In this document: positions 9,137 to 43,184 of the stretch, piece by piece | Layout: each line of letters starts with the position of its first letter | Position numbering within the stretch: the first letter of the stretch is position 1 | NCBI GenBank assembly: GCA_001778235.1 | Contig: MFGJ01000001.1 | Span: forward strand, 165,605 to 229,604 | Source: Candidatus Falkowbacteria bacterium RIFOXYC2_FULL_36_12 | GTDB taxonomy: Bacteria > Patescibacteriota > Patescibacteriia > UBA11705 | Direction of reading: 5' to 3' | Length of the DNA: 64,000 nucleotides | Position numbers and translations under genes: made by a program | Notes under the pieces: model-generated | Database searches by the model: none | What the model was told of the DNA's origin: nothing | The model's input: only the letters and a program-made list of their open reading frames with translations

Positions 9137-9736
9137 ATGAAAAAATATTTATTAGTTTTTACATTGATGTTGCTTGTTGGAAGTTTTGTTTTTTCACATA
9201 ATGTTTTGGCTGAAGTCAATGATGATTTTAAGACAATCTGTATTCGTTTGGCAGGACCGGATGCACTATTACAGGGAAAGTGTGCTGAAATAACGCCGGT
9301 TTCTTCCTCGGATTTTGCAAGGTTAAAATGTAAGGAAGTAGCTGAAGCCTTGTCTGATGAAGATGGGGTTCAGGATTGTGAAAATGTGGGAATTATTGCC
9401 CCAAGCACAACAGGTGATACTGCAAGCGGAGAAGGAGCAGAAGATGATTTGATAAAAGGAATATATGATAGTATTGGAAAGTTTGAAGAATTGGGAATTA
9501 CTTCGGCGAATCAAGATGTGCCAACATTTGTAGGAAATATTTTGAAATTATTTTTTGGTATAATTGGTTCAGTTGCTTTAGTAATGTTTATTTATGGTGG
9601 ATTTGGTTATATGACATCAGCGGGCGATCCGAAGAAGGTGGCAAATGCTAAAAATACTTTTATTTGGGCATCACTTGGACTTTTGTTGGTTTTTGGTGCT
9701 TATGCTCTAGTAAATTTTGTAATCAGTAATTTATAA
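9137..9736 (+). CDS. TrbC/VirB2-like pilin family protein 2, with an extended Cys-containing N-domain
   Basis: Signal peptide. ...YGGFGYMTSAGDPKKVANAKNTFIWASLGLLLVFGAYALVNFV. Confidence 0.6.
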   Translation: MKKYLLVFTLMLLVGSFVFSHNVLAEVNDDFKTICIRLAGPDALLQGKCAEITPVSSSDFARLKCKEVAEALSDEDGVQDCENVGIIAPSTTGDTASGEGAEDDLIKGIYDSIGKFEELGITSANQDVPTFVGNILKLFFGIIGSVALVMFIYGGFGYMTSAGDPKKVANAKNTFIWASLGLLLVFGAYALVNFVISNL

Positions 9737-9790
9737 AGGTCGGATAATAATACTCGCGGGGCGAGAATTTAAATATTAATTGAAAAAAAC

Positions 9791-10165
9791 ATGTTAAAAA
9801 AAATTATCGCAATTACAATGGTTTTGACTCTTGCAATAGCAGTCGCAACTCCGGTATTGGCGGCAAGTGATCCGTTCGGAGTAGAGACTGTTGGAACAGA
9901 ATTGAACCTTGGAAACAAAGATATTCGTCAGACAATTGGTGAGATTATCAATGTTGGTTTGGGATTTCTTGGAGTGGTTGCTATTATCATTGTACTTATT
10001 GGTGGTTTCAAGTATATGACTGCTGGTGGAGCTGAAGAAAAGACTAAAGAGGCAAGAAAATGGATAATTTCAGGTGTGATTGGTTTAGCAATTATTTTGT
10101 CTGCATACGCAATTACAACTTTTGTTGTAAATCAACTGGTTACAGCGACTGGTAGTGGTGTTTAG
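9791..10165 (+). CDS. TrbC/VirB2-like pilin family protein 3
   Basis: GGFKYMTAGGAEEKTKEARKWIISGVIGLAIILSAYAITTFV. Confidence 0.6.
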   Translation: MLKKIIAITMVLTLAIAVATPVLAASDPFGVETVGTELNLGNKDIRQTIGEIINVGLGFLGVVAIIIVLIGGFKYMTAGGAEEKTKEARKWIISGVIGLAIILSAYAITTFVVNQLVTATGSGV

Positions 10166-10181
10166 TCACGAAAATTATTGA

Positions 10182-10217
10182 GGCAGAGTTTTAGCAGCTG
10201 AAAAACTCTGCCGTTTT
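10182..10217 (+). terminator. Rho-independent terminator (ggcagagtttt...aaaactctgcc + TTTT)
   Basis: 11-bp stem followed by a T-run. Confidence 0.6.
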
Positions 10218-10252
10218 CACTAGAGTAAAAAGTCTATAAATTTTTTGCCTTA

Positions 10253-10642
10253 GTGAAAGATATGAAGAAATATTTAGTTTTAATTACAATATTAATGCTT
10301 TTTCCCCTTGGGGCGTTAAAGGCGTCGCCAATTGAAGATGGGTTGAATTTATCAGCTACAACTTCAGGCTTGGTGACTGAAGAGCAGACACAATCAGAGG
10401 CGGATTTATTGGTGGCGGAAAAGATAGGAACTATTATCAAGGTTTTTTTGTCAATTATTGGTATTATATTTTTGATGTTGATCATTTTCGGTGGTACTCT
10501 ATGGATGACTGCTGGTGGTGATCAAACTCAACTGACTAAAGGTAAGAACTATATTATTTACGCGGCGATTGGGCTGGTTATGATTGCCGGTAGTTATGCT
10601 GTAACAGATTTTGTGATAAGAGCATTTATTGATCAATTTTAG
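10253..10642 (+). CDS. TrbC/VirB2-like pilin family protein 4
   Basis: FGGTLWMTAGGDQTQLTKGKNYIIYAAIGLVMIAGSYAVTDFV. Confidence 0.6.
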   Translation: MKDMKKYLVLITILMLFPLGALKASPIEDGLNLSATTSGLVTEEQTQSEADLLVAEKIGTIIKVFLSIIGIIFLMLIIFGGTLWMTAGGDQTQLTKGKNYIIYAAIGLVMIAGSYAVTDFVIRAFIDQF

Positions 10643-10656
10643 ATATTATAAAAATT

Positions 10657-11043
10657 GTGCTAAAATGCATATTAAGTATGAAGAATAAAATTTTAATTTG
10701 TTTGGTACTGTTTGGTCTGGTTGTTGGAGGTCAAGTTTTGGCTTTTGATGTGGAAAATACTGGTTTGGGAAAAACTGCGGAAACGGCAGGGTATAATCTG
10801 ACTAAATCTGATCCAATAGTGATTGCTGGTAATGTAATTCAAATATTTTTGGGACTATTAGGTTTAATTTTGATGATTATTTTGGTTTATGCTGGTTTTA
10901 TGTACATGTTGGCTGGAGACAGATCTGATCAGGTGACAAAAGCTAAAGCTTGGATTACTAATAGTATAATAGGAATTGTGATTGTGGCAGGAGCCTATGC
11001 AATTTCAACCTATGTGATTGAGGCATTAATAAGTAGTGTTTAA
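10657..11043 (+). CDS. TrbC/VirB2-like pilin family protein 5
   Basis: AGFMYMLAGDRSDQVTKAKAWITNSIIGIVIVAGAYAISTYV. Confidence 0.6.
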   Translation: MLKCILSMKNKILICLVLFGLVVGGQVLAFDVENTGLGKTAETAGYNLTKSDPIVIAGNVIQIFLGLLGLILMIILVYAGFMYMLAGDRSDQVTKAKAWITNSIIGIVIVAGAYAISTYVIEALISSV

Positions 11044-11045
11044 AT

Positions 11046-11426
11046 ATGAAAAAAATTGTATTGTGTTTAATGATTATTTTGGCTTTATTTGTGATGACAA
11101 CGGTTGTGGTAAATGCCAGTGCTTTTGATCAAGCAGCAGTAAATTTGACCAAAGGTGGAGATCAAGCTTATGGAGAAGGGACTGAAACTGATTTGCCGAT
11201 TTTGGTTGGGAGTATTGTAAATGTTTTTTTGGCTGTGCTTGGTATTGTGCTGACAATAATAATAATTCGTGGTGGTTTTATGTACATGTTGGCTGGTGGT
11301 GATCCAAATCAAACTCAAAAAGCTAAATCATGGATTATTAATGGTGTAATTGGGTTAATAATTATTTTGGCGGCCTATGCGATCTCATCGTTTGTGGTCA
11401 GCAGTTTGGTAGAAGCGGGCAAATAA
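11046..11426 (+). CDS. TrbC/VirB2-like pilin family protein 6
   Basis: GGFMYMLAGGDPNQTQKAKSWIINGVIGLIIILAAYAISSFV. Confidence 0.6.
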   Translation: MKKIVLCLMIILALFVMTTVVVNASAFDQAAVNLTKGGDQAYGEGTETDLPILVGSIVNVFLAVLGIVLTIIIIRGGFMYMLAGGDPNQTQKAKSWIINGVIGLIIILAAYAISSFVVSSLVEAGK

Positions 11427-11441
11427 TTTAAGCTGAAATAT

Positions 11442-11843
11442 ATGAAAAAAATTTTAATATTTTTATTTCTGTTTGTTCTAGTGTTTCTAACATTGCAAAT
11501 AAGTCCGGTTTTAGCAGGGACCACCGAAAGAACTATTGAATCAGAGCTTGGTAAATTTGGGGATACTGGTTACGGAAGTGAAGAAGCAACTCCATTACCA
11601 TTACTTGTTGGGCGAATTATAAGTGTGGTTTTGGGGCTTTTGGGAATTGTGTTATTATTTATAATAATTCGCGGTGGATTTATGTATATGACTGCTGGCG
11701 GTGATCCAAATCAAACCCAGAAAGCTAAATCGTGGATTATAAATGGTGTGATTGGATTGGTGATTTGTTTTACTTCATATATGCTAAGTTCATATATTGT
11801 TGGGAGGCTGATGGAAGATGTGTTGCAGGTGACATTGTTGTAG
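11442..11843 (+). CDS. TrbC/VirB2-like pilin family protein 7
   Basis: GGFMYMTAGGDPNQTQKAKSWIINGVIGLVICFTSYMLSSYI. Confidence 0.6.
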   Translation: MKKILIFLFLFVLVFLTLQISPVLAGTTERTIESELGKFGDTGYGSEEATPLPLLVGRIISVVLGLLGIVLLFIIIRGGFMYMTAGGDPNQTQKAKSWIINGVIGLVICFTSYMLSSYIVGRLMEDVLQVTLL

Positions 11844-11867
11844 ATGTGAGAAGTACTGAAATTTGAT

Positions 11868-12062
11868 GATACAAATATACAAATACTACGAATATTACAA
11901 ATACTAGAGATACGAATATACAAATATTACGAATATTACAAATGCTAGAGATACGAATATACAAATACTACGAATATTACAAATGCTAGAGATACGAATA
12001 TACAAATATTACGAATATTACAAATACTAGAGATACAAAGATACAAATATTACGAATGCTAG
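11868..12062. repeat. Tandem repeat of about 41-42 bp, roughly 4.5 copies (agatacgaatatacaaatattacgaatattacaaatgctag)
   Basis: Direct reading. Lies between pilin 7 and pilin 8. Confidence 0.85.
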
Positions 12063-12148
12063 AAGTATGTATTATAGATATTACGGATTTATGAAAGTAA
12101 TGTATTTAATATATAATTGGAGATATAAAAAATAATTAAATAAAAATT

Positions 12149-12544
12149 ATGAAGACAAAAGTTATTGCAATGGTTTTATCACTCGTAGTGTGTTTATTGC
12201 TCGTTGCACCAGTAGCTTTGGCACAAATTGATATTCAAAGCAATTTGAATGCAACTGGTGAAGGTGTATATGGACCTGGGGATCAACCTTCAGATGAATT
12301 GCCAGTAATTATTGGACGAATTATCAATGTGGTGCTTGGTTTTATGGGTGTAGTCATGGTATTGATTGTAATTTATGGTGGATTTCTCTATATGACTGCT
12401 GGTGGTGAGCCAGGGAAAGCAGACAAAGCAAAAAGCTGGATTATAAACGGTATTATTGGTTTGATTATCATGCTGTCTGCCTATGGAATCACCAGTTTTG
12501 TTATCACTCGGTTAACAGCTGCCACAGGAACAACTGCAAATTAA
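12149..12544 (+). CDS. TrbC/VirB2-like pilin family protein 8
   Basis: GGFLYMTAGGEPGKADKAKSWIINGIIGLIIMLSAYGITSFV. Confidence 0.6.
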   Translation: MKTKVIAMVLSLVVCLLLVAPVALAQIDIQSNLNATGEGVYGPGDQPSDELPVIIGRIINVVLGFMGVVMVLIVIYGGFLYMTAGGEPGKADKAKSWIINGIIGLIIMLSAYGITSFVITRLTAATGTTAN

Positions 12545-15148: not shown

Positions 15149-15603
15149 GTAAAACCAGAGATAATGTGATTAGAAGGGCTAACAAGGTCTTTGAAACAGG
15201 AAAAGCAATTTTTGCTCATTATGATTGTTTTAATTGTGAGATAGAGATTTTAAAAAGTATAAGTTTTTGTACTAGAGATGATGAAGTTTTGTCTGTAATT
15301 AAAGGGTTTAGACCTGTCCCGGGCAGTAAAGATGAAACAGATATTAAAATTGAAGTTAGTTTGGAAATACTTCATCTGGGTAACGGCATTGTCTATGCGG
15401 GTAAATTGGTGCTTGATAATCTTTCTGTTTGGGAATTGGGTGAATGCAGTGATGATTTTATTCTTGGTCGGTATGTTATTGGAGATGATAGTAATTGGAT
15501 TAGAACTTTAACTTCGCAGGAAGTGGAGAGGCTAGTAGCTAATTTAGATGAAGCAGACAGTATATCCAAAAGAATTTTACAAATTATTACGATGGAACCT
15601 TGA
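15145..15603 (+). CDS. Hypothetical protein (translationally coupled to the upstream ORF)
   Basis: ORF. No recognisable motif. Confidence 0.4.
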   Translation: MSKTRDNVIRRANKVFETGKAIFAHYDCFNCEIEILKSISFCTRDDEVLSVIKGFRPVPGSKDETDIKIEVSLEILHLGNGIVYAGKLVLDNLSVWELGECSDDFILGRYVIGDDSNWIRTLTSQEVERLVANLDEADSISKRILQIITMEP

Positions 15604-15718
15604 AAAAATATTCAGGGTTTTTTGTTAATTTTAAAAATTTACTGGGGTTTTAATTGCATGTTTTTATTAAGTTTTAATTTGTTCACGGCAAAAAGTCTAC
15701 GGTTCCGCGGTGTGGGTC

Positions 15719-15900
15719 CTTTTTGACACCCTGCCTGAAAGCCTTAGCCTGTCTCGACTTCACGATGAAGACGGGCAAGATGCGTTAGATGTTATTGTTG
15801 TTTATGTATTTAAATTTGTCACTCTGAACTTGTTTCAGAGTATAAAGAGATAGTTTGATTATTTTTGTTATATCCTGAAACAAGTTCAGGATGACAAAAT
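15719..15900 (+). repeat. F4 ~170-bp repeat, copy 2
   Basis: Near-identical to 12791-12960. Confidence 0.8.
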
Positions 15901-16258
15901 AAAATTTTTAGACTCCGAGGTTGATCATGTTCGTGGGATTTAATATAAAAGTAAATGCTTAATACAATGGAAAATGAATTGCAGGTGATTAAATTATTTA
16001 AAGATGGAGTCCTTATGGCCTGTAAAATAGAAACCATCAGTTGTTATTCAGTCGTAAGCTGGCTTAGTTGCTGGTTTAAATCAAGATGGATTATGCGTTC
16101 AGACAAGGTAGAGTTATTGGGTTGACAGTTTGCTTGAAAAAAGAGGATTATTTTGGTATGATTTGATTGCGGAAATACAAAGTATTTTCGTAGATTTTTA
16201 TTATTTATATGTACAATTTTTAGGAGGGAGATTTGTAGGCATTTTAATTTTGAAAAAT

Positions 16259-16975
16259 ATGTCAGGACACTCAAAATGGGCAAATATTCAAGTAAGAAAA
16301 GGAACCCAAGATAAAAAACGGGCAAATTTGTTTTCTAAATTAACTAGAAATATTATTCTAGCAGCTCGAGGTGGGAGTGATTTAGATACAAATTTCAAGT
16401 TACGATTGGCAGTTGAAAAAGCTAAAGAATCTAATGTGCCGAAAGATAATATTGAGCGAGCGATTGCAAAAGGATCTGGTGAGTCAGGTGCGGATCAAAT
16501 CGAAGAAATAATTTATGAAGGTCATGGACCAAATGGGGTAGCGATATTAATTGAGGTTGTAACGGATAATCGCAATAGAACTTCTTCGGAAGTAAAGCAT
16601 ATTTTATCCAAGTATGGCGGAGCTTTGGCTGGGCCAAATTCAGTTAAATGGATGTTTGAACATAAAGGTGTTTTACGCATAAATGAAAATCAATATTCTG
16701 AAAAAGATGAATTTCAATTGGAATTAATTGATTTTGGGGCTGATGATGTAATTGAAGAAGATGGTGGATTGACGGTAATGGCAAAATTTGAGACTTTTCC
16801 CAGATTAAAATTGGCGTTGGAAAAAAAAGGAATAAATTTAGAATATGCTAGTCTTGACTGGGTGGCTAAAGAAACCATTGATGTAAAAGATGATGTTAAG
16901 GAAAGGCTTGATAAGTTATTTGAGGCGCTTGAAGACGATGATGATGTGGCTAATTATTATAGTAATGCCCGATAA
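16259..16975 (+). CDS. yebC: YebC/PmpR family DNA-binding transcriptional regulator
   Basis: MSGHSKWANIQVRKG...NIILAARGG...NVPKDNIERAIAKG. Confidence 0.9.
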   Translation: MSGHSKWANIQVRKGTQDKKRANLFSKLTRNIILAARGGSDLDTNFKLRLAVEKAKESNVPKDNIERAIAKGSGESGADQIEEIIYEGHGPNGVAILIEVVTDNRNRTSSEVKHILSKYGGALAGPNSVKWMFEHKGVLRINENQYSEKDEFQLELIDFGADDVIEEDGGLTVMAKFETFPRLKLALEKKGINLEYASLDWVAKETIDVKDDVKERLDKLFEALEDDDDVANYYSNAR

Positions 16976-17035
16976 AAATAATTAAGTTTGAGTGATCGGT
17001 CAATAGTTGGTATTAAAAGAGCAAAAATATTTATT

Positions 17036-17539
17036 ATGAAAAATGAATTGATAGTATTAGGGATTGATCCAGGGTTTGCTTTGACCGGTTATGGGGTAAT
17101 AAAGGCTAGTTCACAGAAAATTGAAGCAATTGATTTTGGTTGTTTTGAAACAAAAGTGGGTGAAGATTTTTCAGATAGATTATTATATTTGAGCAAAGAA
17201 TTGAAGAAAATCATTATAAAATATAAACCGGATATTGTTGGTGTGGAGGAATTGTTTTTCAATAAAAATGTAAAAACCGCTTTGAAGGTAGCGCATGCGC
17301 GCGGTGTAGTCTTACTGGTGTGTGGTCAGTTTGGAATTCCAGCATTTGAATTTACTCCGACACAGGTCAAACAAGCGATTTCTTGTTATGGTCGAGCTGA
17401 TAAAAAACAAGTACAACAAATGATAAAAATTTTGTTAAATTTAAAAAAAACACCAAAGCCTGATGATGTAGCCGATGCTTTGGCGGTTGCTGTTTGCGCA
17501 GCAAATTCTTATAAAATAAAATCGGTTTATGAAAAATAA
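17036..17539 (+). CDS. ruvC: Crossover junction endodeoxyribonuclease RuvC
   Basis: LGIDPGFALTGYGVI...DALAVAV motifs, in the conserved yebC-ruvC arrangement. Confidence 0.85.
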   Translation: MKNELIVLGIDPGFALTGYGVIKASSQKIEAIDFGCFETKVGEDFSDRLLYLSKELKKIIIKYKPDIVGVEELFFNKNVKTALKVAHARGVVLLVCGQFGIPAFEFTPTQVKQAISCYGRADKKQVQQMIKILLNLKKTPKPDDVADALAVAVCAANSYKIKSVYEK

Positions 17540-19082
17540 AATTTTAGTTTTAACTGTGGTTATTCTGGGCTTGATGTTGAATTTTTCAGCGATTATGGCA
17601 CAGGAATTGCCAGCTTCAGATGATGTTTTGTTTAGCAATGAACTTCAAGCAATAGCTGGTAGTGATAGAAATGTGGTTGTTGGCAGACAGGTGTTATTTA
17701 GTGGCAATGCTTCTGTCCAGCCAGCAGGAAAGAATGTTAAATATTTATGGGATTTTGGCGATGGAATAAAAATTGAAGGGGTTGATGTAACACATGTTTA
17801 TACACGGTCAGGAGTTTATCGAACAGTTTTGACAATCAGCTATGATGACCAAGTTGCTTCAGATGAAATAATTGTTTCGGTTGATAAAGATATTGTGTTA
17901 TTAATCACAGATTCATTTGTGAAAGAAGATGTGAGGGATCGGTTGCAAGAAAAAGCCAGTACGCAGGGAATTCTTTTGGTAGATTTGCATGTTGATGATA
18001 GTTCGGTTGATTATTTGACGGTGAATGATTTGATGCAGAAAATTATTGATAACAAGGAAGATATAAAACAAGCAACAAATGTAATTTTGTTGACTCATAA
18101 CAATATTGGTCTTGATGCCTTGATTAGTGCCAGTCAGGAATTGTCAAAAACAACTAATTTGAATACTCTGGGTTTTAAAAATAAAAATTTAGTTGTATTG
18201 ACTGATGAAAGTTTGAATGTTACTGCGAAAATAGCCCAAAATGTTTATGGTTTGTTGACTCCGCAATCATTGCTGGTAGCCAAAGCTGAAGCTCTGGAAT
18301 TGGTGATAGGAAGACTGCAAATAAACCAAGTGGTTGAAGATTTGAAAAATAGTGAAATTGAGTATCAATTGTTAGGAGTACACACTCAAAGGCCTTTGAC
18401 TAATTTACGGGTTTGGAATGTATTCTCCTATATGGTAAGTTTTATGGTCAATAACGGTGTTTCACTAAATACGATTTATTTAATATTAATTTTGCCAGTG
18501 ATTGCGACATTGATTGCTTTTTCGCGCCAAATAATTGGTGTTAAATCTTTTGGTTTGTATGCGCCAACTTTGGTAGCTATGTCATTTCTGGTGACTGGAA
18601 TTAAATATGGCATTGCTTTTTTTGTGGTGGTGTTGTTGGTGGGAACACTTGGAAGATTGGTAGCGAGAAAGATTCGTTTGATGTACTTGCCGAGAATGGC
18701 GATTGTATTGTCGATTGTAAGTTTATCAATTTTTGTTTTGTTTTTTGTCGGATCTTTGATGGAGAAAACTGATTTGATTGCGATTTCTATTTTCCCCATA
18801 TTAATCATGGTGATTATTACGGAGAAATTTATTTCTTCCCAGATTGAACTTGGTAGTTTGACGGCTTTTAAGTTGGTATTAGAAACTTTGGTGTTGTCAA
18901 TTGTTAGTTATTTATTGGCTAATTGGCAACCGCTTAGATCATTAATTTTAGGTTATCCTGAATTTATTTTTGTTACATTCCTCCTAAATTATTTAATCGG
19001 TAAATGGAATGGATTGAGGTTGCTAGAATTATATCGTTTTAGAAAGGTAATAAAAAATGTTGAGATTTCTGAAAAAAAGTAA
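17529..19082 (+). CDS. Membrane protein with signal peptide, extracellular PKD-like domain (WDFGDG...HVY..SGVY), and C-terminal ~7 TM helices. Possibly of the 7TM family associated with ATP-grasp peptide-ligase systems.
   Basis: PKD motif read directly. About seven hydrophobic helices in the last ~220 aa. Immediately upstream of an ATP-grasp/retropepsin gene. Confidence 0.55.
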   Translation: MKNKILVLTVVILGLMLNFSAIMAQELPASDDVLFSNELQAIAGSDRNVVVGRQVLFSGNASVQPAGKNVKYLWDFGDGIKIEGVDVTHVYTRSGVYRTVLTISYDDQVASDEIIVSVDKDIVLLITDSFVKEDVRDRLQEKASTQGILLVDLHVDDSSVDYLTVNDLMQKIIDNKEDIKQATNVILLTHNNIGLDALISASQELSKTTNLNTLGFKNKNLVVLTDESLNVTAKIAQNVYGLLTPQSLLVAKAEALELVIGRLQINQVVEDLKNSEIEYQLLGVHTQRPLTNLRVWNVFSYMVSFMVNNGVSLNTIYLILILPVIATLIAFSRQIIGVKSFGLYAPTLVAMSFLVTGIKYGIAFFVVVLLVGTLGRLVARKIRLMYLPRMAIVLSIVSLSIFVLFFVGSLMEKTDLIAISIFPILIMVIITEKFISSQIELGSLTAFKLVLETLVLSIVSYLLANWQPLRSLILGYPEFIFVTFLLNYLIGKWNGLRLLELYRFRKVIKNVEISEKK

Positions 19083-20454
19083 GGGAGTTTTGGGCATGAA
19101 TGCTCGGAACTTGGATTTTATTCGTCCAGGCGGGTCAAAGGCTGCTCGAAGGTTGGTTGATAACAAACTTCGGACAAAAAGAATGTTGAAAAAAAATGGA
19201 TTGCCAATAGCAAAATTGATTGCAGCTATAAAAACACGCGATGAATATGATAAATTTGATTGGGGTAGTCTACCTGATAGTTTTGTGTTAAAACCAAATC
19301 AGGGACTTGGTGGTGAAGGTATAATGGTGACATTTGGAAGAAAGAAAAATGGAGGTTGGGTATTGCCACTTGATAGAGATGCTGAATTACCTGATATTAT
19401 GCTCCGGGTCAGTAATATTCTTGATGGAGATTATTCAATGACATCAACACCTGACGCAGCATTTTTTGAAGAGAGAATAAAAATTCATCCGACTTTTAAG
19501 CTTTATTCATATAAAGGTGTGCCTGATATTAGAATAATTGTTTATAATAAAGTACCGGTAATGGCGATGCTCCGATTGCCGACCAAATATTCCAATGGAA
19601 AGGCAAATTTGCATGCTGGCGGTATTGGTGTGGGTATTGATATTGAAACTGGGATTACCACTCAAGCAATATTTAGAGGTAAGCTAATTGAATTTCTGCC
19701 TGATAGAAAATTTCCGATTCGAGGTATAAAAATTCCTTATTGGAATCAGATGCTAGATATCGCAGTAGAGTCTCAAATTGCTTGTGGTTTGAATTATGTT
19801 GGAGTTGATATTGCCATAGATCGTGAAAGAGGTCCAATAATTTTGGAGTTAAATGCCAGACCTGGATTGGAAATTCAGGTAGCAAATTTGGCGCCACTGA
19901 AAGATAGGCTGATTCGAGTAAAAGGGTTGAAGATAAAAACTGTTAAGAAGGGAATAAAGATGGCTAAGGAGTTGTTTGGTGGTGAAGTTGAACAGGAAAT
20001 TGAGGAGATTTCAGGAAAGCAGGTTGTTGGTTTGATTGAGACGGTGAAATTGCAAGGGAAAAATAATGAAGTGATTGAGCTAAAAGCCAAAATTGATACA
20101 GGAGCTGGTGTTACTTCAATTGATGAGGATTTGGCTATTGCCCTTGGGTTTGAAAGTGCGTTGGAATATTGTAAATCATTTAATTTGCCTGATGTGATGA
20201 CTCGGGAACAGGTAGCAGAACTTAGTAGTAAAAAACTTTGGAAGGATTTTGAAAAGCACCCGGACATTATTTCAGTAATAAAAACATTTAGTTCACATGG
20301 GGCATCATATCGAATGGGGGTGCCGATTAAATTAACTTTGTCTGGGGTAAAATTTACTTCTACGGTCTCTGTAATCAGCCGAAAAGGTATGCAGTACCCG
20401 ATAATTATTGGTAGAAGGGATTTGAAAAAATTTTTAGTTGATCCGAGTAAGTGA
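19057..20454 (+). CDS. ATP-grasp ligase (alpha-L-glutamate-ligase/RimK-related) fused to a C-terminal retropepsin-like aspartyl protease domain (DTGA)
   Basis: N-terminal ATP-grasp-like region (LKPNQGLGGEGI, NLHAGG, ILELNARPG). C-terminal VVGLIETVKL...KAKIDTGAGVTSID retropepsin active-site motif. Confidence 0.6.
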   Translation: MLRFLKKSKGVLGMNARNLDFIRPGGSKAARRLVDNKLRTKRMLKKNGLPIAKLIAAIKTRDEYDKFDWGSLPDSFVLKPNQGLGGEGIMVTFGRKKNGGWVLPLDRDAELPDIMLRVSNILDGDYSMTSTPDAAFFEERIKIHPTFKLYSYKGVPDIRIIVYNKVPVMAMLRLPTKYSNGKANLHAGGIGVGIDIETGITTQAIFRGKLIEFLPDRKFPIRGIKIPYWNQMLDIAVESQIACGLNYVGVDIAIDRERGPIILELNARPGLEIQVANLAPLKDRLIRVKGLKIKTVKKGIKMAKELFGGEVEQEIEEISGKQVVGLIETVKLQGKNNEVIELKAKIDTGAGVTSIDEDLAIALGFESALEYCKSFNLPDVMTREQVAELSSKKLWKDFEKHPDIISVIKTFSSHGASYRMGVPIKLTLSGVKFTSTVSVISRKGMQYPIIIGRRDLKKFLVDPSK

Positions 20455-20557
20455 GGGGGAATGAGTTGGAAAGATGGTGAAATGTTGAAATATTGGGTAA
20501 ATAAGGTTGAAAAAATAGTTGGAAATAATGAAATAGTGAAATAAAGTTGAAAATAGA

Positions 20558-21436
20558 TTGAAAATAAGTTGTAAATATAGGATTATGAGATTATTAATTG
20601 TAGGGCCTGATACGCAGGAAAATAGGATGATTGTGCAGGAGGCAAAAGACAGAGGACATGAAGTTTATAGAATATCAATTACAAGATTGAGTTTCATAAT
20701 GGCGAATGGTGATTTCAAAGTTTTTTTCAATAAAAAAGAGTTGAAGGGAATTGATGCTTGTTTAATTCGTGGGGTAAGCCCTCATTTTGCTAAAGCAATA
20801 ACGCTGGCCAAGACATTGCATCGGCAAGGGACAAGGGTTGTTGACCGGGAGCTTTACCAAAAAGTTTATGCTTTAAATAAAATGTTTACGTATTCTGGAT
20901 TGAGCTATCATGGTTTGCCTTGTTTGCCATCATATTATTTTTCAAATAATGAGGAATTTAATAATTATAAGAAAAAATTGAAATTTCCAGTGTTGGTTAA
21001 GGATATTAATGGAATGCACGGCAGAAATATTTTTTTCAAATATTCATTGAAGGAATTGGAAGATTTTTTCAACTGGAGAAAAATTAATAAATATTTTATA
21101 CAAAAATTTGTCGACTCGGAATATTATTACCGCGTGCTGGTGGTGGGGAAAAAGGTCCTTGGTGCAATGAAAAGAAATACACTAAAAAGTATTAGAAGAA
21201 AAAGAATTCCTTTAGCAAAGAGATCACATTACAGTAAACTGACAAGAGAATTAAAGCGGTTAGGTAAAAAAGCCGCAAAGGCAACTAATTCAGATATTGC
21301 AGGAGTTGATATTATTTATGATGGCGATAAGCCATATATTCTAGAGGTGAACAGATCACCACAGTTTAAAAGGTTTACGCAAATTATGCAGGTAAAAGTG
21401 GCTGAAGAAATTGTTAAATACATAGAAAAATATTAA
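20558..21436 (+). CDS. RimK-like ATP-grasp ligase (start probably at MRLLIVG, 20585)
   Basis: FPVLVKDINGMHGRNIF, YRVLVVGKKVLGAMKR, AGVDIIYDGDKPYILEVNRSP. Confidence 0.6.
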   Translation: MKISCKYRIMRLLIVGPDTQENRMIVQEAKDRGHEVYRISITRLSFIMANGDFKVFFNKKELKGIDACLIRGVSPHFAKAITLAKTLHRQGTRVVDRELYQKVYALNKMFTYSGLSYHGLPCLPSYYFSNNEEFNNYKKKLKFPVLVKDINGMHGRNIFFKYSLKELEDFFNWRKINKYFIQKFVDSEYYYRVLVVGKKVLGAMKRNTLKSIRRKRIPLAKRSHYSKLTRELKRLGKKAAKATNSDIAGVDIIYDGDKPYILEVNRSPQFKRFTQIMQVKVAEEIVKYIEKY

Positions 21437-21439
21437 TAT

Positions 21440-22408
21440 ATGAAAATTTCTCCATATTCAAGAGTTTTAATCAGAGAGGCAAAGAAGTTTGGAATAAAAA
21501 TACACCCTGTTGGTGAAGCAGGGAAAATGTTTATATTGCGTAGAGGAGAAAAGCATACTTTTATTTATCAATCATTAACAGAGCTGACAAGTGACCCAAT
21601 GTATAAGATTTCGGCAAATAAATATTTAACTAATTTTACACTGAAAAAGTTTGGATTGCCAATCACAAATTTTAAACTGGGAAAAGATATAAATGATGCT
21701 AAAAAATTTCTGAAAAAATACAAAAAGATTGTTATAAAACCATTGTCAGCCAATCAGGGTAAGGGAATTACTATTGGTATAAAGAAAGCCAGTGAATTGC
21801 AAGAAGCGATTGATGGGGCTCTGAAATATACTGTAAGAAATAAGTTGGATAGCACTTACAAGAAAAATTTTTTATTGGAGAAGGCGGTGCCCGGTGATGA
21901 TCACCGTCTGTTAGTGATTAATTTCAAAATTGTTTTTGCGATAAAAAAAATTCCTGCGTATGTCGTAGGTGATGGTGAAGGTACAATTAAACAATTGATT
22001 GAGAAAAAGAATATTTTAAAATTAAAACATAAAAAGCCAATAATAATTGACGAGACATTGAGACATGTTTTGGCAAGGCAAGATTTGAGATTGAGAGATG
22101 TGCCTAAACTTGGTCAAAAAATATTTGTTCGAAGAACAGCAAATCTGGCAACGGGTGGTGAATCAATTGATATAACAGATGATCTTAATCCCAAGATAAA
22201 AAAAATGGCGATTCAGGCGGCGAAAATAATGAAAATGCCTGTGGCTGGGTTTGATTTTATGTGTAGAGATTATACAAAATCAAAAGGGTTTTTTATCGAG
22301 GTAAATCCAATCCCGGGGTTGATGATTCATCATTTTCCACATATAGGAAAGCCGAGAAATCCTGCTAGAGAAATAATAAAAATGTTAATAAAAAAGAAAT
22401 TGATATGA
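21440..22408 (+). CDS. ATP-grasp ligase, cyanophycin-synthetase N-terminal-like (paralog A)
   Basis: KKIVIKPLSANQGKGI...DHRLLVINFKIVFAIKKIPAYVVGDGEGTIKQLIEKKN...AGFDFMC. Confidence 0.6.
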   Translation: MKISPYSRVLIREAKKFGIKIHPVGEAGKMFILRRGEKHTFIYQSLTELTSDPMYKISANKYLTNFTLKKFGLPITNFKLGKDINDAKKFLKKYKKIVIKPLSANQGKGITIGIKKASELQEAIDGALKYTVRNKLDSTYKKNFLLEKAVPGDDHRLLVINFKIVFAIKKIPAYVVGDGEGTIKQLIEKKNILKLKHKKPIIIDETLRHVLARQDLRLRDVPKLGQKIFVRRTANLATGGESIDITDDLNPKIKKMAIQAAKIMKMPVAGFDFMCRDYTKSKGFFIEVNPIPGLMIHHFPHIGKPRNPAREIIKMLIKKKLI

Positions 22409-23349
22409 AAAGTTTGCATGTAAAACTCCTAAAGGAAACAGCAAAACAGCTAGGATTAAAGTTCAAATCTTATGATGGTGAAAATGTTTTGCATGAAGTA
22501 AGTAATGGAAAGAAAAGTTTTTTAATTGATCGTTCTGCGACTGAACTGACGAGCAGGTTGGGCTATATTTTGGCGGACAATAAACATTTGACAATTTCAG
22601 CATTGAATAAATTTGATATTCCGGTACCGCAACAAAGAATGGTAAAAAAGTATCAGGATAGTTTGGCTTTTTTCAAAAAAAATAAACCAATAGTAGTAAA
22701 ACCTAACAAATGTTCTCTGGGAAAAGGGGTGACGGTAAATGTGAAGACTTTAGAAGATTTGAAAAAGGCTTTTCATTATGCAAAAAGATATGATAGTAGA
22801 GTCTTGGTAGAAGAATTTATCCCAGGTGAAGATTATCGTTTTACAGTGATTGATTACAAACAGGTTTATGTGGTGAAGAGAATTCCAGCTTTTGTAATTG
22901 GAGATGGCAAACATAGCATTCTATATTTAATTAAACAAAAAAATAAGGTGAAAAAATCTTATAAAAAAGATATAAAAACTAATGAAAAAACAATTGAGAT
23001 CTTGAAAGAAAAAAAATTGACTTTGAGATCTATTCCAGCAAAAGATGAGATTGTTTATTTGCGGAAGGCGGCTAATATTGCTGAAGGGGGAACCAGTATT
23101 GATTTTACTGATATTGCTTCAAAGCCGTTAAAGGATTTGGCAATTGCTGCTTGCCGTGTTCTTCATTTGCCAGTGGCGGGGATTGATATTCTGACTGAAA
23201 ATATCAATGGTGATAAGGGCGTTATAATTGAAGTAAATCCTAGACCACACATAATTTTGCATCATTATCCGCATGAGGGTGAATCAAGATATCCAGCTAG
23301 AGATATTTATAATATGTTATTTGGAAAAAAATTAAAATTGAGAAAATAA
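22405..23349 (+). CDS. ATP-grasp ligase, cyanophycin-synthetase N-terminal-like (paralog B; start overlaps the upstream stop)
   Basis: KPIVVKPNKCSLGKGV...DYRFTVIDYKQVYVVKRIPAFVIGDGKHSILYLIKQKN...AGIDIL. Confidence 0.6.
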   Translation: MKSLHVKLLKETAKQLGLKFKSYDGENVLHEVSNGKKSFLIDRSATELTSRLGYILADNKHLTISALNKFDIPVPQQRMVKKYQDSLAFFKKNKPIVVKPNKCSLGKGVTVNVKTLEDLKKAFHYAKRYDSRVLVEEFIPGEDYRFTVIDYKQVYVVKRIPAFVIGDGKHSILYLIKQKNKVKKSYKKDIKTNEKTIEILKEKKLTLRSIPAKDEIVYLRKAANIAEGGTSIDFTDIASKPLKDLAIAACRVLHLPVAGIDILTENINGDKGVIIEVNPRPHIILHHYPHEGESRYPARDIYNMLFGKKLKLRK

Positions 23350-23361: not shown

Positions 23362-26229
23362 ATGCCATTCCCACAATTTAAAAAGGTTAGTAACCATCAG
23401 CCATACAATGATGATAATTTGATGGTAAAAAAAACAAAGAAAAAAAAGAAGTTGATAAAAATTTTATTGCGTTATGGTGTAATGGCTGGAGCGGTTTTGC
23501 TGATACTAATTGTGGCGCTGTTTGCTTGGTTTTCTCGCGGGTTGCCAAATCCAGATAGAATAATTGATAGAACAATTGCTCAAAGTACTAAAATTTATGA
23601 CAGTAAACAGGAGACTGTGCTGTATGAAATTCATGGTGATGAAAAAAGAACTTTGGTAAAGTTGGACGAAATGCCAGATTATATTCCAAAGGCAACAATC
23701 GCGGTTGAGGACAGGTATTTTTATGATCATCATGGCTTTAATGTTGTAGCGATGATAAAGGGAACATTAATTGATCCTTTACTTGGTAGAGGTGTGCGTG
23801 GAGGTTCGACTTTGACACAGCAGTTAGTAAAAAATGCTATTTTGACCAATGAAAGAAGTATTTCTCGTAAAATAAAAGAGTTTATTTTGTCTTTTCAGAT
23901 TGAAAGTAAATTTACAAAAGATCAGATTTTGCAAATGTATTTGAACGAGATTCCTTATGGTTCAACTGCTTATGGTGTGGCTTCGGCAGCTCAAACTTAT
24001 TTTGGTAAAGAGTTGAAAGATATAACACTTGGTGAAGCAGCGGTTTTGGCAGCTCTGCCACAAGCTCCGACATTTTATTCACCATATGGCAATAATGTTG
24101 ATAGATTGATTGTCAGACAGCAGTATGTTCTTGATCAGATGACTGATCTTGGCTATATCACAAAACAACAGGCTGATGAAGCTAGGTCTGAACAAATTGT
24201 ATTTAGAAAAAAGAGCGAATCAATTCAAGCTCCGCATTTTGTGATGTATGTAAAAGAAAAGTTGGCTGATATGTTTGGTGATAAAATGGTTGAACAGGGT
24301 GGATTGAAAGTGATTACAACACTTGATGTTGAAATGCAGAAAAAAGCTGAAGAAGCGGTAGTGAATGGAGTGGATAGACGAGGTGGTCAATATGGTTTTA
24401 CCAATGCAGCGCTTTTTGCTATGAATCCAAAAGATGGTCATATCTTGGCTATGGTTGGATCAAAAGATTATTTTGATGATACGATTGATGGTAATGTAAA
24501 TGTGACAACTAGACTGCGACAACCTGGGTCTTCTATCAAACCATTGGTTTATGCAGCTGCTTTTAATAAAGGATATACACCAGAGACAATGCTTTTTGAT
24601 GTTAATACTATTTTCAAAACAGATACCAAGAATTATGAACCTAAGAATTATGATTTGAAGGAAAATGGACCAGTTACAATGAGAAAAGCTTTGCAGGGGT
24701 CTCTAAATATTCCAGCGGTTAAAACTTTGTATTTAGTTGGTATTGATAATATGATTAATTTCCTTGAGATGATGGGATATACTTCATTTCAAGACAGAAG
24801 TCGGTTTGGTTTAGCCTTGGTTCTTGGTGGAGGTGAAGTAACCTTGGAAGAGCATGTTGCGGCTTTTTCGGTTTTTCCTAATGAAGGTATTTACAGAGAA
24901 TCAGTAGCAATCCTGAAAGTAGAGGATGCAAACGGAGAAGTTTTGTTTGAAGCTAAAGAAAAAGAAAGAAAAGTGCTTGATAAAAATATTGCGAACACAA
25001 TGAATAATGTGTTGTCAGATAATGGGGCTCGAGCCTATATTTTTGGAGCAAATAATTATCTAACAATTTCTGGTCGACCGGTTGGAGCCAAAACAGGAAC
25101 AACCAATGATTATCGCGACGCTTGGACTGTTGGCTATACTCCGTCAATTGCAGCTGGTGTTTGGGTGGGAAACAATAATAATTCTGAAATGAAAAGAGGA
25201 GCAGATGGAAGTGTGATTGCGGCACCGATTTGGAATGAATTTATGTCAGCAGTATTACAGGGTCAACCAGTTGAGTCATTTAATAGTTTTATCCCAGCTA
25301 AAACCGATAAACCAGTATTGAATGGTAATTTCGCCAATGAACAAATTTTGAAGATTGATAAATTTTCCGGTAAATTGGCAACGGATAATACTCCAGCATC
25401 AGCGGTTGAAGAGAAAACTTTTAAGGAAGTTCATAATATATTGCATTATGTAAATAAAGATGATCCACAGGGCGGATATCCAAACACGCCTCAATCTGAT
25501 CAGCAATATTCTAGCTGGGAATCTGGAGTCCAAAAGTGGATTGAGAAACAAAAAACCAGTGATGATCCGGCAAAGAGAGAACAGTTTGATTTTATAAATC
25601 AAGCACCACCAACAGAGTATGATGATGTTCATATTCCAGCAAATAAACCTAGCTTGCAAATATATTCTCCGCAGAACAATGAGACTATTTCCAGTTCAAA
25701 TTTAAATGTAGAAGTAAATGTTTCAGCGCCAAGAGGGATTAGTCGTGTAGAATATTATCTTGATGAACAGTTGATAAATACGGTTTATAGTGCACCATTT
25801 AACCTTAGTTTTAATATAAGTTCTATTTTTGGTAATGGTTATCATAAATTGAAAGTGGTGGTATTTGATGATGTTGATAATAGTGCGGAAGAAGCAATTG
25901 ATATAAATGTTTTGGCTGAACGAAAAGATCCTTCGGTCAATTGGATTAACCCGATTGGCAATAGGAGTCTTTCGGCTGGGGATTTCCCGTTTGTAACGAC
26001 TGTTCAGCTAAATGATGTTTTGGCTTCGAAAAAAATTGATTTTTACTATAACAAAAATGGGAGTTCGGCAACCAGTCTTTATGGCTCTGAAGTGGCCCCA
26101 GGAAACCAGAATATAAGTGTTCCGATGGAATACCCAGGTGAGGCTGGAGTATATGAGCTTAGAGCAATTTTGACCTTGCAGGATAATAGAACTTTTAGTT
26201 CTGGAGTGGTGAAGGTGAAGGTTGATTGA
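23362..26229 (+). CDS. Class A penicillin-binding protein (glycosyltransferase + transpeptidase, PBP1A-like) with a C-terminal ~250-aa extension
   Basis: GT51 motifs EDRYFYDHHG, RGGSTLTQQ. Transpeptidase motifs SSIKP and KTGTTND. Confidence 0.9.
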   Translation: MPFPQFKKVSNHQPYNDDNLMVKKTKKKKKLIKILLRYGVMAGAVLLILIVALFAWFSRGLPNPDRIIDRTIAQSTKIYDSKQETVLYEIHGDEKRTLVKLDEMPDYIPKATIAVEDRYFYDHHGFNVVAMIKGTLIDPLLGRGVRGGSTLTQQLVKNAILTNERSISRKIKEFILSFQIESKFTKDQILQMYLNEIPYGSTAYGVASAAQTYFGKELKDITLGEAAVLAALPQAPTFYSPYGNNVDRLIVRQQYVLDQMTDLGYITKQQADEARSEQIVFRKKSESIQAPHFVMYVKEKLADMFGDKMVEQGGLKVITTLDVEMQKKAEEAVVNGVDRRGGQYGFTNAALFAMNPKDGHILAMVGSKDYFDDTIDGNVNVTTRLRQPGSSIKPLVYAAAFNKGYTPETMLFDVNTIFKTDTKNYEPKNYDLKENGPVTMRKALQGSLNIPAVKTLYLVGIDNMINFLEMMGYTSFQDRSRFGLALVLGGGEVTLEEHVAAFSVFPNEGIYRESVAILKVEDANGEVLFEAKEKERKVLDKNIANTMNNVLSDNGARAYIFGANNYLTISGRPVGAKTGTTNDYRDAWTVGYTPSIAAGVWVGNNNNSEMKRGADGSVIAAPIWNEFMSAVLQGQPVESFNSFIPAKTDKPVLNGNFANEQILKIDKFSGKLATDNTPASAVEEKTFKEVHNILHYVNKDDPQGGYPNTPQSDQQYSSWESGVQKWIEKQKTSDDPAKREQFDFINQAPPTEYDDVHIPANKPSLQIYSPQNNETISSSNLNVEVNVSAPRGISRVEYYLDEQLINTVYSAPFNLSFNISSIFGNGYHKLKVVVFDDVDNSAEEAIDINVLAERKDPSVNWINPIGNRSLSAGDFPFVTTVQLNDVLASKKIDFYYNKNGSSATSLYGSEVAPGNQNISVPMEYPGEAGVYELRAILTLQDNRTFSSGVVKVKVD

Positions 26230-41894: not shown

Positions 41895-42218
41895 GTGACT
41901 ATGGCTGGAAAGAGAAGGAAATATTCTGTAGTGAAATTTGTCGAAAAAGTTGTTCTTCCTATTATGAAAGAATTTGAAAGAAGGTATAGATATAAGCCCA
42001 CTCTTCCTGTAATTGAATTAAAAATAACTACGCATAATAAAAGAGAATGTGTTAGGTTAGAGATGCTTTATGGAAATGAACCTGCTCGGAATACTCATAT
42101 GTTAGATTTAGGATGGGTTCGGCATATCGGTGATGATGATCATTTCCATAAATGTGAATTTGCTTCTATGTGCACCTGTTCTAAGGCTGAAATAGAAGAA
42201 AATACAATAAAAATTTGA
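41895..42218 (+). CDS. Hypothetical small protein
   Basis: ORF with a gaaaggggagg RBS. Confidence 0.35.
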   Translation: MTMAGKRRKYSVVKFVEKVVLPIMKEFERRYRYKPTLPVIELKITTHNKRECVRLEMLYGNEPARNTHMLDLGWVRHIGDDDHFHKCEFASMCTCSKAEIEENTIKI

Positions 42219-42343
42219 TTTTTATTATAATCATGATAAAACAGTCATGATTTTTTGTTTGGAAAAGTTCTATTTTTGTATGGGGTCAAGAAAATTTAAA
42301 AGAAAAAACCGCTAATATAAGTAAATAAATTAGTGGTCTTTTC

Positions 42344-42419
42344 TGGAGCGGGTAGAGGGAATCGAACCCTCATCTCTAGCTTGGAAGGCTAGCATAATAA
42401 GCCATTATACTATACCCGC
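42344..42419 (-). tRNA. tRNA-Gly (anticodon TCC)
   Basis: Manual fold of GCGGGTA...CTAGC-CTTCCAA-GCTAG...GAGGGTTCGATTCCCTC-TACCCGC-TCCA. Confidence 0.85.
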
Positions 42420-42832: not shown

Positions 42833-42853
42833 TGGTCGGGGAGGTGGGACTCG
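42833..42853 (-). pseudogene. Orphan 21-nt duplicate of the tRNA-Pro 3' end (tggtcggggaggtgggactcg)
   Basis: Exact match to 42996-43016. No upstream tRNA body. Confidence 0.6.
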
Positions 42854-43072: not shown

Positions 43073-43184
43073 AAGTATGTGCTCCGCACAACTTCGGGGC
43101 AAACCCCTCGAAAAATTGTACGAAGTAATTGATAAGTTTATTTATTTTAATGTGAATTGTGTTTTCGAAGCAACCTCTAATTCA

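Follow-up and report, generated by a model that had tools for sequence, protein, structure and literature searches.

The DNA analysed here is a 64,000-nucleotide (nt) stretch, hereafter the window, of contig MFGJ01000001.1 from Candidatus Falkowbacteria bacterium RIFOXYC2_FULL_36_12 (Patescibacteriota), and our subject is a run of five genes at 17529-23349 of its + strand, which encode a membrane protein and four ATP-grasp ligases, one of them fused to a retropepsin-like protease. We refer to these genes, in order, as g1 to g5. Their assignments are based upon Pfam and NCBIfam profile searches, AlphaFold 2 (AF2) models, Foldseek comparisons, and matches to solved structures. The first gene, g1 (17529..19082), encodes a RloB-like membrane protein of 517 amino acids (aa); g2 (19057..20454) encodes a 465-aa fusion of a RloC-type ATP-grasp ligase and a RloA-type retropepsin; g3 (20585..21436) encodes a RimK-family ATP-grasp ligase; and g4 (21440..22408) and g5 (22405..23349) each encode a stand-alone ATP-grasp ligase of the type seen in the G domain of cyanophycin synthetase (CphA) and in GshF. 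The first-pass annotation of this DNA had described five co-directional, tightly packed genes, and an open reading frame (ORF) check found all five on the + strand where it had placed them, save that g3 most likely starts at ATG 20585 (MRLLIVGPD, as in the homolog of the closest relative, L081; L numbers denote the loci of relatives), and not at TTG 20558. The first two genes overlap by 26 nt, g4 and g5 overlap by 4 nt, and g3 and g4 are separated by 3 nt.

The best guide to the first two genes is RloABC, the retropepsin-like osmotic stress tolerance operon of Pseudomonas aeruginosa (Lormand et al., 2025; PMC12239564). There, RloA is a secreted retropepsin that cuts runs of at least eight Glu residues, RloB is an inner-membrane protein that combines an inactive transglutaminase with seven-transmembrane (7TM) helices, and RloC is a cytoplasmic ATP-grasp protein (PMC12239564). 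The first-pass annotation had taken the trio of ligase, retropepsin and 7TM protein to be a computational prediction only, which no longer holds, since RloABC was characterised both genetically and structurally in 2025 (PMC12239564). Judged by the profile and structural matches given below, the g1-g2 pair is a distant Patescibacterial variant of RloB, RloC and RloA.

The ATP-grasp domain of g2 (residues 17-291; 19105..19929, + strand) matches ATPgrasp_ST (PF14397) with an E-value of 8e-67 and 225.8 bits, against a cut-off of 31.4, and scores 279.3 bits over positions 8-293 of the 317-position RloC / alpha-L-glutamate ligase-like model TIGR02291, which is below that model's cut-off of 314.2. 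In the AF2 model, which has a predicted local distance difference test score (pLDDT) of 82.8, the pre-ATP-grasp N domain is absent, and the closest solved structures found by Foldseek are ArgX, LysX, and RimK, all of them ATP-grasp enzymes that act on protein C-termini. Residues K79, D251, E264, and N266 of the domain are invariant in homologs. The whole protein has a 100% identical counterpart, annotated as hypothetical, in Candidatus Falkowbacteria bacterium RIFOXYD2_FULL_35_9, and the same full identity to hypothetical proteins of that bacterium is seen for other proteins of the window.

The C-terminal half of g2 (residues 322-465; 20020..20451, + strand) matches the retropepsin family PF05618 with 34.1 bits (gathering cut-off 27). 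Its catalytic D347, T348, G349, and A350, encoded at nt 20095-20106, are invariant in 60 sequences, and K345, two residues before the catalytic Asp, together with R419 and R442, which are spaced 23 residues apart, is invariant or nearly so in the 60 homologs. In RloA, K46 lies two residues before the catalytic D48, and the substrate-binding R114 and R137 are likewise 23 residues apart (PMC12239564). From this alignment and spacing, we infer that K345, R419, and R442 occupy the positions of the poly-glutamate-binding residues of RloA. A profile built from 26 homologs of this half found its best solved matches in 9g59 and 9g58 (E 3e-10), which are the RloA crystal structures of that study, and also matched 2pma and Ddi1. 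The equivalog models for RloA and RimB (NF052262-4, NF052261) score much lower than their cut-offs of 200-280 bits, the best being RloA3 with 33.7 bits. Nonetheless, the alignments identify the C-terminal half of g2 as a retropepsin of the RloA/RimB type with its catalytic DTGA kept. No signal peptide was found in g2, and hence no secretion signal of the RloA type; since the protease also sits behind a cytoplasmic ligase, it is predicted to be cytoplasmic, and by this predicted location it is nearer to RimB than to RloA.

Between the two domains of g2 lies an acidic linker (residues 306-321; 19972..20019, + strand), which reads L-F-G-G-E-V-E-Q-E-I-E-E-I-S-G-K. Within it, F307, G308, and G309 are invariant and E310, E312, E314, and E316 are at least 90% conserved in 60 sequences, whilst residues 310-319 have a pLDDT below 50 and are predicted to be disordered. 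The pattern L-F-G-G-E-x-E-x-E-x-E-E-x-S-G-K is kept throughout the Parcubacteria-type members of the family and replaced in those of the Microgenomates type. Because RloA prefers poly-Glu, one might speculate that the linker is a site of self-cleavage or a pseudo-substrate.

The membrane protein g1 begins with a signal peptide (residues 1-24), followed by a PKD domain (residues 43-112; PKD_4 in Pfam, E 7e-17), an alpha/beta domain (121-285), and seven transmembrane (TM) helices with a C-terminal helix (about 295-516). This order of parts is also that of the AF2 model (pLDDT 86), in which the alpha/beta domain is flavodoxin/CheY-like. Residues 311-507 (18459..19049, + strand) match 7TM_transglut (PF14402) with 96.5 bits against a gathering cut-off of 25 (E 2.3e-27). 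Against the RloB model NF052267, g1 scores 73.4 bits, with a cut-off of 900, and only positions 312-507 of 508 align; the inactive N-terminal transglutaminase of RloB is not matched, and the PKD and alpha/beta domains stand in its place. The 7TM region is the sole part of g1 that is conserved throughout the relatives, most of which are bare 7TM proteins of about 215-310 aa, and therefore it is the membrane core that matters. The ectodomain of PKD and alpha/beta domains is specific to certain lineages, namely Falkow-, Kuenen-, Kerfeld-, Andersen-, and Jacksonbacteria. Given that the N-terminal part lies outside and that seven helices follow, the C-terminal helix is predicted to be cytoplasmic, as is the conserved motif G-K-W-x-G-L-R-x-x-E-x-x-R-F after TM7. 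The C-termini of 78 homologs are basic and not acidic, and the 7TM tail was rejected on that ground as a likely acceptor of an added chain.

The product of g3 belongs to the Pfam RimK family (PF08443; E 3e-22, 79.4 bits against 21) and carries the pre-ATP-grasp domain Rimk_N (PF18030; 28.6 bits against 26.4). Its score of 129.1 bits on the RimK family model TIGR00768 is below the subfamily cut-off of 143.4. The best solved relatives are the Pseudomonas RimK structures 7qys and 7qyr (E 3e-13), plus LysX and ArgX, and the Asp, Glu, and Asn residues of the Mg site are conserved in the alignment to them. There is no gene for ribosomal protein S6 within the window, and we found no link between g3 and S6. 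For the first three genes, then, what had been read from the DNA alone (a signal peptide, PKD domain and about seven TM helices in g1; an ATP-grasp ligase related to RimK and alpha-L-glutamate ligases joined to a DTGA retropepsin in g2; a RimK-like ligase in g3) is borne out by the profiles and models.

The remaining two ligases, g4 and g5, had been likened to the ATP-grasp part of CphA. On the cyanophycin synthetase model TIGR02068, which has 862 positions and a cut-off of 850 bits, g4 scores 230.5 bits over positions 158-473 and g5 scores 245.8 bits up to about position 475, and the best structures are both G domains of CphA1 (7wac for g4, E 4e-40; 7lgm for g5, E 2e-43). Each has the P-A-x-V-G-D-G motif. 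They are also near to the C-terminal module of GshF and to the ATP-grasp half of N-acetylglutaminylglutamine synthetase, scoring 167-209 bits on the GshAB and N-acetylglutaminylglutamine synthetase models. Equivalent residues were read from HMMER alignments to 7wac and 7lgm in TeCphA1 numbering, with the residue roles taken from the cryo-EM study of TeCphA1 (PMC9427784). Both proteins keep K220 and K261, which bind ATP; R309, which binds the C-terminal carboxylate or acyl-phosphate; N394, which contacts the beta-carboxyl of the incoming Asp; and E450 and N452 of the Mg site. What they do not keep is E215, which binds the Arg side chain of the primer (Lys in g4, Ile in g5), the P-loop residue H267 (Gln in g4, Leu in g5), and R458, which binds the alpha-carboxylate of the incoming Asp (Met in g4, Ile in g5). 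GshF has Leu, Tyr/Phe, and Met/Tyr at positions 215, 267, and 458, so there is a partial likeness to GshF in the Ile of g5 for Leu at 215 and in the Met of g4 at 458. The CphA comparison thus stands for the catalytic core and the P-A-x-V-G-D-G motif, and fails for the residues that recognise cyanophycin, which are replaced as they are in GshF. Profile searches found neither the CphA N domain nor its Mur-ligase M domain in either protein. Owing to these absent domains and the replaced cyanophycin-specific residues, g4 and g5 are, as far as alignments can tell, stand-alone peptide C-terminal ligases of the CphA-G/GshF clade and not cyanophycin synthetases.

D-Ala-D-Ala ligase (Ddl)-type models match the ligases far more weakly (E about 1e-9 to 1e-14, against 1e-68 to 1e-73 for CphA, GshF, and RimK models), and the best such score is 51 bits (g5) against cut-offs of 243-246; a Ddl function for g4 and g5 was rejected on these scores, and no ORF of the cluster fell into an unrelated family in the HMM searches. 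The two proteins are 38% identical, and in a rough neighbor-joining tree each pairs with a different gene of another Falkowbacterium (L001), which suggests that they are old paralogs and probably have distinct roles, as opposed to being redundant. Close orthologs of g5 amount to about 15 protein clusters, all from Patescibacteria, beyond which come GshB-like proteins of ~328 aa, likewise stand-alone, from Clostridia and methanogens. By alignment to their relatives, the four ligases of the cluster represent three ATP-grasp families (RloC, RimK, and CphA-G/GshF), and each has an intact ATP/Mg site. A sixth paralog at 4802-6016, counted as a fifth by the first-pass annotation, is indeed CphA-G-like over residues 143-400, with some 140 additional aa at its N-terminus. 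We do not regard it as part of the system, given its unrelated neighbours (NUDIX, nucleotidyltransferase, and solute-binding protein genes) and its branch in the tree, which is separate from that of g4 and g5.

Scanning one genome per species for a sequence pattern yielded at least 600 stretches, and at least 594 of them encode a relative of g2. The best 80 of these at least 594 stretches were analysed in detail, with hidden Markov models of the window proteins searched against all ORFs of the loci; counts out of 75 or 69 refer to loci among these 80. In 71 of 75 loci, the gene immediately upstream of the fusion gene is that of the 7TM protein, so that the order of the core pair is strongly conserved across Patescibacteria. 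At least one accessory ATP-grasp ligase gene follows the pair directly in 51/69 loci, in numbers from one to four. The make-up of this accessory set shifts from locus to locus: none (18 loci), one RimK-like gene (15), two RimK-like genes (13), one CphA-like gene (8), CphA-CphA-RimK (5), two CphA-like genes (4), and rarer combinations besides. The order seen in the window (RimK-like, CphA-like, CphA-like) is absent from the analysed representatives, that is, the best 80 of at least 594. In the closest relative that was found, the g2 homolog is 78% identical and is followed by one RimK-like and one CphA-like gene, and the Falkowbacterium L001 carries four CphA-like genes without a RimK-like one. 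Of the proposal that four ligases with this membrane partner form an undescribed arrangement, the conserved core pair therefore survives, and the exact ligase set does not, since the accessories vary from none to four and change family. Two RimK-like accessory ligases (L009:9417-11195 and L068:9287-10852) continue into a fused C-terminal region whose matches to DUF3541 are weak and sub-threshold. In a Kuenenbacteria locus without accessory ligases, a bAvd-like gene (L082:8473-8838) follows the 7TM-fusion pair; such genes are companions of diversity-generating retroelements. Near the 80 loci, we found no recurring small ORF or carrier whose C-terminus is acidic, and a locus-encoded carrier or substrate of that kind was discarded.

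Records that are named by lineage and contain g2 relatives are mostly Patescibacteria (Falkow-, Moran-, Kerfeld-, Dojka-, Shapiro-, Levyi-, and Paceibacteria). Many other matching records (L007, L009, L014, and others) are titled 'uncultured Bdellovibrionales', 'Gammaproteobacteria', or 'Candidatus Bipolaricaulota'; since their gene order resembles that of Patescibacteria, these titles are probably taxonomic labelling errors.

In some relatives, a further peptidase has joined the system. Three loci encode a three-domain chain of RloC-type ATP-grasp ligase, retropepsin region, and MATCAP (PF08014, E about 1e-43), at L045:3474-5876, L053:7989-10391, and L064:7992-10346. The retropepsin region of the last is undetected by Pfam and has ETG in place of DTG, so this fused protease may be inactive. 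In L049, L025, L018, and others, MATCAP is encoded by a separate gene next to the cluster, which brings the number of loci with a MATCAP homolog to 12/80; all nine that were checked have HE-x-x-x-H, six of them as HEIxTH. The window itself has no MATCAP gene, and L006 has an additional stand-alone retropepsin gene. In Pfam, the MATCAP family is tyrosine carboxypeptidase, i.e., an enzyme that removes C-terminal residues. The repeated joining of this ligase family to both an endopeptidase and a carboxypeptidase implies a substrate that is a peptide chain with a free C-terminus, which would be both extended and trimmed.

The cluster is part of a longer co-directional block, conserved in relatives, that runs from yebC through ruvC, the 7TM gene, the fusion gene, and the ligases to a gene for the class A penicillin-binding protein PBP1A; the first-pass annotation had not noted this setting. 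The block opens with yebC (TACO1/YebC family; 16238..16975, + strand; PF01709 and PF20772), which lies upstream of the 7TM-fusion pair in many relatives as well. Ahead of it are about 630 nt (15604-16237) that hold no convincing ORF, tRNA, or Rfam match, with a terminator-like hairpin at 15594-15621 and promoter-like sites at 16122-16162. Next is ruvC (17033..17539, + strand; Pfam RuvC, E 7e-50), whose position is conserved in the loci and whose stop overlaps the start of g1 by 11 nt; we take both genes as context only. At the other end, PBP1A (23362..26229, + strand; Transgly, Transpeptidase, and Big_7 domains) begins 12 nt after g5 and is probably co-transcribed with the cluster. A PBP1A gene lies downstream on the same strand in 26/69 loci, in many cases no more than about 100 nt beyond the last ligase gene, and in L043 it directly follows the fusion gene.

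The sole sizeable gap in the block is the purine-rich spacer between g2 and g3 (20455..20584, + strand), which is 130 nt long when g3 starts at ATG 20585. It contains approximately nine GTTGAAA-like repeats, roughly 10-20 nt apart, and a promoter-like site at 20558-20586, so the spacer may harbour an internal promoter. GTTGAAA is not enriched over the whole window (24 matches, 26 expected), and it is only the local clustering that stands out. The closest relative has a different repetitive, purine-rich spacer in the same position (L081: 8360-8560). A 27-aa ORF within the spacer (20462-20545) was considered as a locus-encoded substrate and dismissed, as it has no counterpart in the spacer of that relative. 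Apart from this spacer, no promoter or terminator pattern convincingly breaks the block. Rfam and tRNA scans found no RNA element within or beside the cluster. PADLOC gave no model match at an E-value of 0.001 or better for any of the five proteins, and on that ground an anti-phage defence system was set aside.

Several features lie elsewhere in the window, whose G+C content is about 34% and whose GC skew is positive and very strong. The skew is +0.2 to +0.42 at 1-42000 and 56000-64000, where the genes are on the + strand, and approximately zero across 42000-55000, the stretch with 16S rRNA and tRNA genes on the - strand. Those genes occupy 42344-45425, with the 16S rRNA gene at 43931-45425 followed by five tRNA genes (Val, Ile, Phe, Pro, and Gly). 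The window lacks a 23S rRNA gene, which suggests that the rRNA genes are unlinked. At 9137-12544 (+ strand), seven small tandem ORFs all match the T4SS_pilin (TrbC/VirB2) family, and the Kuenenbacteria locus L082 has a similar run of pilin genes upstream of PGI, yebC, and ruvC.

Taking the cluster and its relatives together, the reading we favour, with moderate confidence, is that it encodes a Patescibacterial form of Rlo, in which an acidic peptide or tail is extended at its C-terminus by ATP-driven ligases at the membrane, trimmed by proteolysis, and linked to the cell envelope. The peptide synthesis or modification role that had first been suggested for the cluster is thereby retained. In the characterised RimK, CphA1 G domain, and GshF enzymes, the C-terminal carboxylate of a peptide or protein is converted to an acyl-phosphate, to which the next residue is then added. 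By analogy, the chain would be a carboxylate-terminated acidic peptide or tail, lengthened by single amino acids at the expense of ATP and then cut back. The ligase of g2 would start or elongate a Glu-rich chain, and g3, g4, and g5 could add further residues, each with a specificity of its own, giving a product that varies between lineages. The fused protease, presumably acting as a cytoplasmic dimer, would limit or reset the length of the chain. We envisage that g1, whose translation would be coupled to that of g2, holds the ligase at the membrane through its conserved cytoplasmic face, which includes R333, R376, R389, E432, and the motif after TM7, and passes the product to the cell surface, where in this lineage its PKD and alpha/beta ectodomain would sit; such export is probable.

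The conservation of the ligase-protease fusion in at least 594 stretches ties a RloC-type ligase and a RloA-type protease to one substrate, and a MATCAP that is fused or adjacent in relatives implies that this substrate has a free, editable C-terminus. With regard to physiology, the system probably serves envelope or cell-wall homeostasis, on the basis of the rlo phenotypes of Pseudomonas and of the conserved position directly upstream of PBP1A. In P. aeruginosa, tolerance of osmotic stress, the formation of biofilms, cell shape, and the response to beta-lactams are all influenced by Rlo; cells that have lost the three RloA paralogs together show hypo-osmotic lethality, shape defects, and beta-lactam sensitivity, and deletion of rloB or rloC suppresses the defects of RloA loss (PMC12239564). 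The adjacency of PBP1A agrees with the shape and beta-lactam phenotypes.

Several points count against this reading. RloC-type ligases and the 7TM family lack an established product, substrate, or activity, so that the chemistry is here read across from other ATP-grasp enzymes, and with a cytoplasmic protease, in place of the secreted one of Pseudomonas, the handling of the substrate may differ. The 18/69 loci without an adjacent accessory ligase indicate that the core can do without the extra ligases. The adjacency of PBP1A is absent from Microgenomates- and Dojkabacteria-type loci and may, at least in part, be inherited synteny and not functional linkage. Finally, no NCBIfam score reaches its curated cut-off, be it for RloA, RloB, RloC, the RimK family, or CphA.

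What is extended need not be a free peptide. The cluster might instead add Glu-rich tails to a cytoplasmic protein (e.g., ribosomal protein S6), much as RimK and RimB do, under the control of a 7TM protein that senses or regulates and does not translocate. Poly-Glu tails of RpsF are shortened in vitro by RimB and by RloA alike (PMC12239564), g3 is of the RimK family, g2 is structurally closest to RimK, LysX, and ArgX, its protease is placed in the cytoplasm like RimB, and the MATCAP relatives are carboxypeptidases acting on protein C-termini. Nevertheless, we consider this explanation unlikely, because the 80 loci offer no recurrent acidic acceptor nearby, the basic C-terminus of the 7TM protein is an improbable acceptor, most homologs are bare 7TM proteins that lack an ectodomain for sensing, and the rim and rlo systems of Pseudomonas show no genetic interaction (PMC12239564). 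The proximity of PBP1A raises another prospect, in which the accessory ligases extend the stem-peptide carboxylate of peptidoglycan precursors, or build a lineage-specific branch, with the Rlo-like core and PBP1A in the same pathway. The tight, apparently co-transcribed arrangement with PBP1A in 26/69 loci would fit, as would the cell-shape and beta-lactam phenotypes of Pseudomonas rlo mutants. Wall-peptide chemistry differs between bacterial groups, just as the number and type of ligases do here between lineages, and ATP-grasp ligases that add branch residues to wall precursors exist, such as the D-Asp ligase of Enterococcus. We nonetheless judge it distinctly unlikely: Ddl- and pseudomurein-type models score far below those for CphA, GshF, and RimK, the block has no Mur-ligase or Fem-type genes, and the core pair also occurs with no PBP1A nearby (Microgenomates and Dojkabacteria types) and with no accessory ligase (18/69). 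Moreover, the conserved, Arg-lined retropepsin and MATCAP point to longer acidic peptide or protein substrates.

The scores of g4 and g5 on the GshAB and N-acetylglutaminylglutamine synthetase models (167-209 bits) could equally be taken to mean that these two enzymes, and perhaps g3, make a small cytoplasmic di- or tripeptide, an osmolyte or thiol of the glutathione or N-acetylglutaminylglutamine type, with a loose link to Rlo. Consistent with this, the CphA1 residues are absent at the three distinguishing positions, two of which are GshF-like (E215 in g5, R458 in g4), the nearest relatives outside Patescibacteria are stand-alone GshB-like enzymes, and Rlo itself is linked to osmotic stress. 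It appears very unlikely to us, given that the block has no GshA-type, GNAT, or amidotransferase partner, that the ligases sit tightly between the Rlo-like pair and PBP1A, overlapping by only a few nt, and that accessory ligases after the pair in 51/69 loci argue for one system. Least credible is the idea that g4 and g5 make a storage polymer, cyanophycin-like or of poly-Asp, although cyanophycin synthetase is their best-scoring model and provides their best solved structures. We hold such a polymer to be highly improbable, and cyanophycin itself is effectively refuted by the architecture (G domain only), by scores of 230-246 bits against a cut-off of 850, and by the residues at positions 215, 267, and 458 (Lys, Gln, Met in g4; Ile, Leu, Ile in g5).

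Extension and trimming of an acidic chain at the membrane therefore remains our preferred account, and it can be taken further. The cluster might be a template-free ATP-grasp assembly line, in which lineage-specific ligases build a defined acidic oligopeptide that the protease sizes and the 7TM protein exports, to serve with PBP1A as a wall polyanion or osmotic buffer. This bolder version is rather unlikely, but if true, the same logic would explain the product of RloB and RloC in Pseudomonas and Vibrio. Having ligase and protease in one polypeptide also suggests that their shared substrate is handled in the cytoplasm in this organism, and the recruitment by the core of ligases with different predicted specificities means that the product may be a heteropeptide, as opposed to plain poly-glutamate. 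That the system is widespread in very small genomes, which keep few dispensable genes, and lies beside the gene of the main cell-wall synthase, suggests a basic envelope function. In addition, small soluble ligases are convenient biochemical material with which to approach the substrate and product of Rlo.

The components and the three-part logic of the system are already known, the trio of ligase, retropepsin and 7TM protein having reportedly first been predicted computationally by Iyer and co-workers in 2009, ahead of the genetic study of 2025. In the literature searched, we found no description of the Patescibacterial form with its cytoplasmic fused protease, nor of its replaced or missing ectodomain, variable accessory ligases, MATCAP fusions, and PBP1A neighbourhood, and nothing of relevance on MATCAP (DUF1704) together with ATP-grasp enzymes or on cyanophycin in the candidate phyla radiation. 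Among known systems, RloABC is the closest: all three functions are encoded together in both; g1 is homologous over the whole 7TM region and C-terminal helix (PF14402; NF052267 312-507); the g2 ligase is of the same ATPgrasp_ST/TIGR02291 family as RloC; and the PF05618 retropepsin of g2 has DTGA and the conserved basic residues, with RloA crystals as its best solved matches. The differences are that the protease of g2 is fused to the C-terminus of the ligase and predicted to be cytoplasmic, whereas RloA is secreted; that g1 has a PKD and alpha/beta ectodomain, absent in most relatives, where RloB has an inactive transglutaminase; that the Patescibacterial gene order is B and then C-A, with one to four extra ligases and sometimes MATCAP peptidases; that the host is a monoderm-like Patescibacterium, whilst RloB is 96% proteobacterial (PMC12239564); and that the scores are below every NCBIfam Rlo cut-off.

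The Rim system, in which RimK and RimB act with RimA in the poly-glutamylation of ribosomal protein S6, resembles the cluster in its pairing of an ATP-grasp ligase with a cytoplasmic retropepsin that trims the added Glu, and g3 is itself a RimK-family protein with a pre-ATP-grasp domain. However, Rim has no 7TM partner, the ligase of g2 is from another family and lacks the N domain, and g3 scores 129 bits against the RimK cut-off of 143. With the CphA1 G domain, GshF (GshAB), and N-acetylglutaminylglutamine synthetase, g4 and g5 share an alignment across the whole G domain (about 160-480) and the machinery for forming an acyl-phosphate at the C-terminus of a peptide and then adding one amino acid, but they are stand-alone proteins of 314-322 aa without the N and M domains, the GshA half, or the GNAT half. 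A last parallel, which is one of analogy only, is with the enzymes of the tubulin C-terminal code, i.e., the TTL/TTLL ligases and the MATCAP, VASH, and CCP carboxypeptidases. The window has no MATCAP, and the bacterial system has no tubulin and uses other ligase families; yet in relatives an ATP-grasp ligase is fused or adjacent to MATCAP (PF08014), and the same logic of writer and eraser would apply to a C-terminus.

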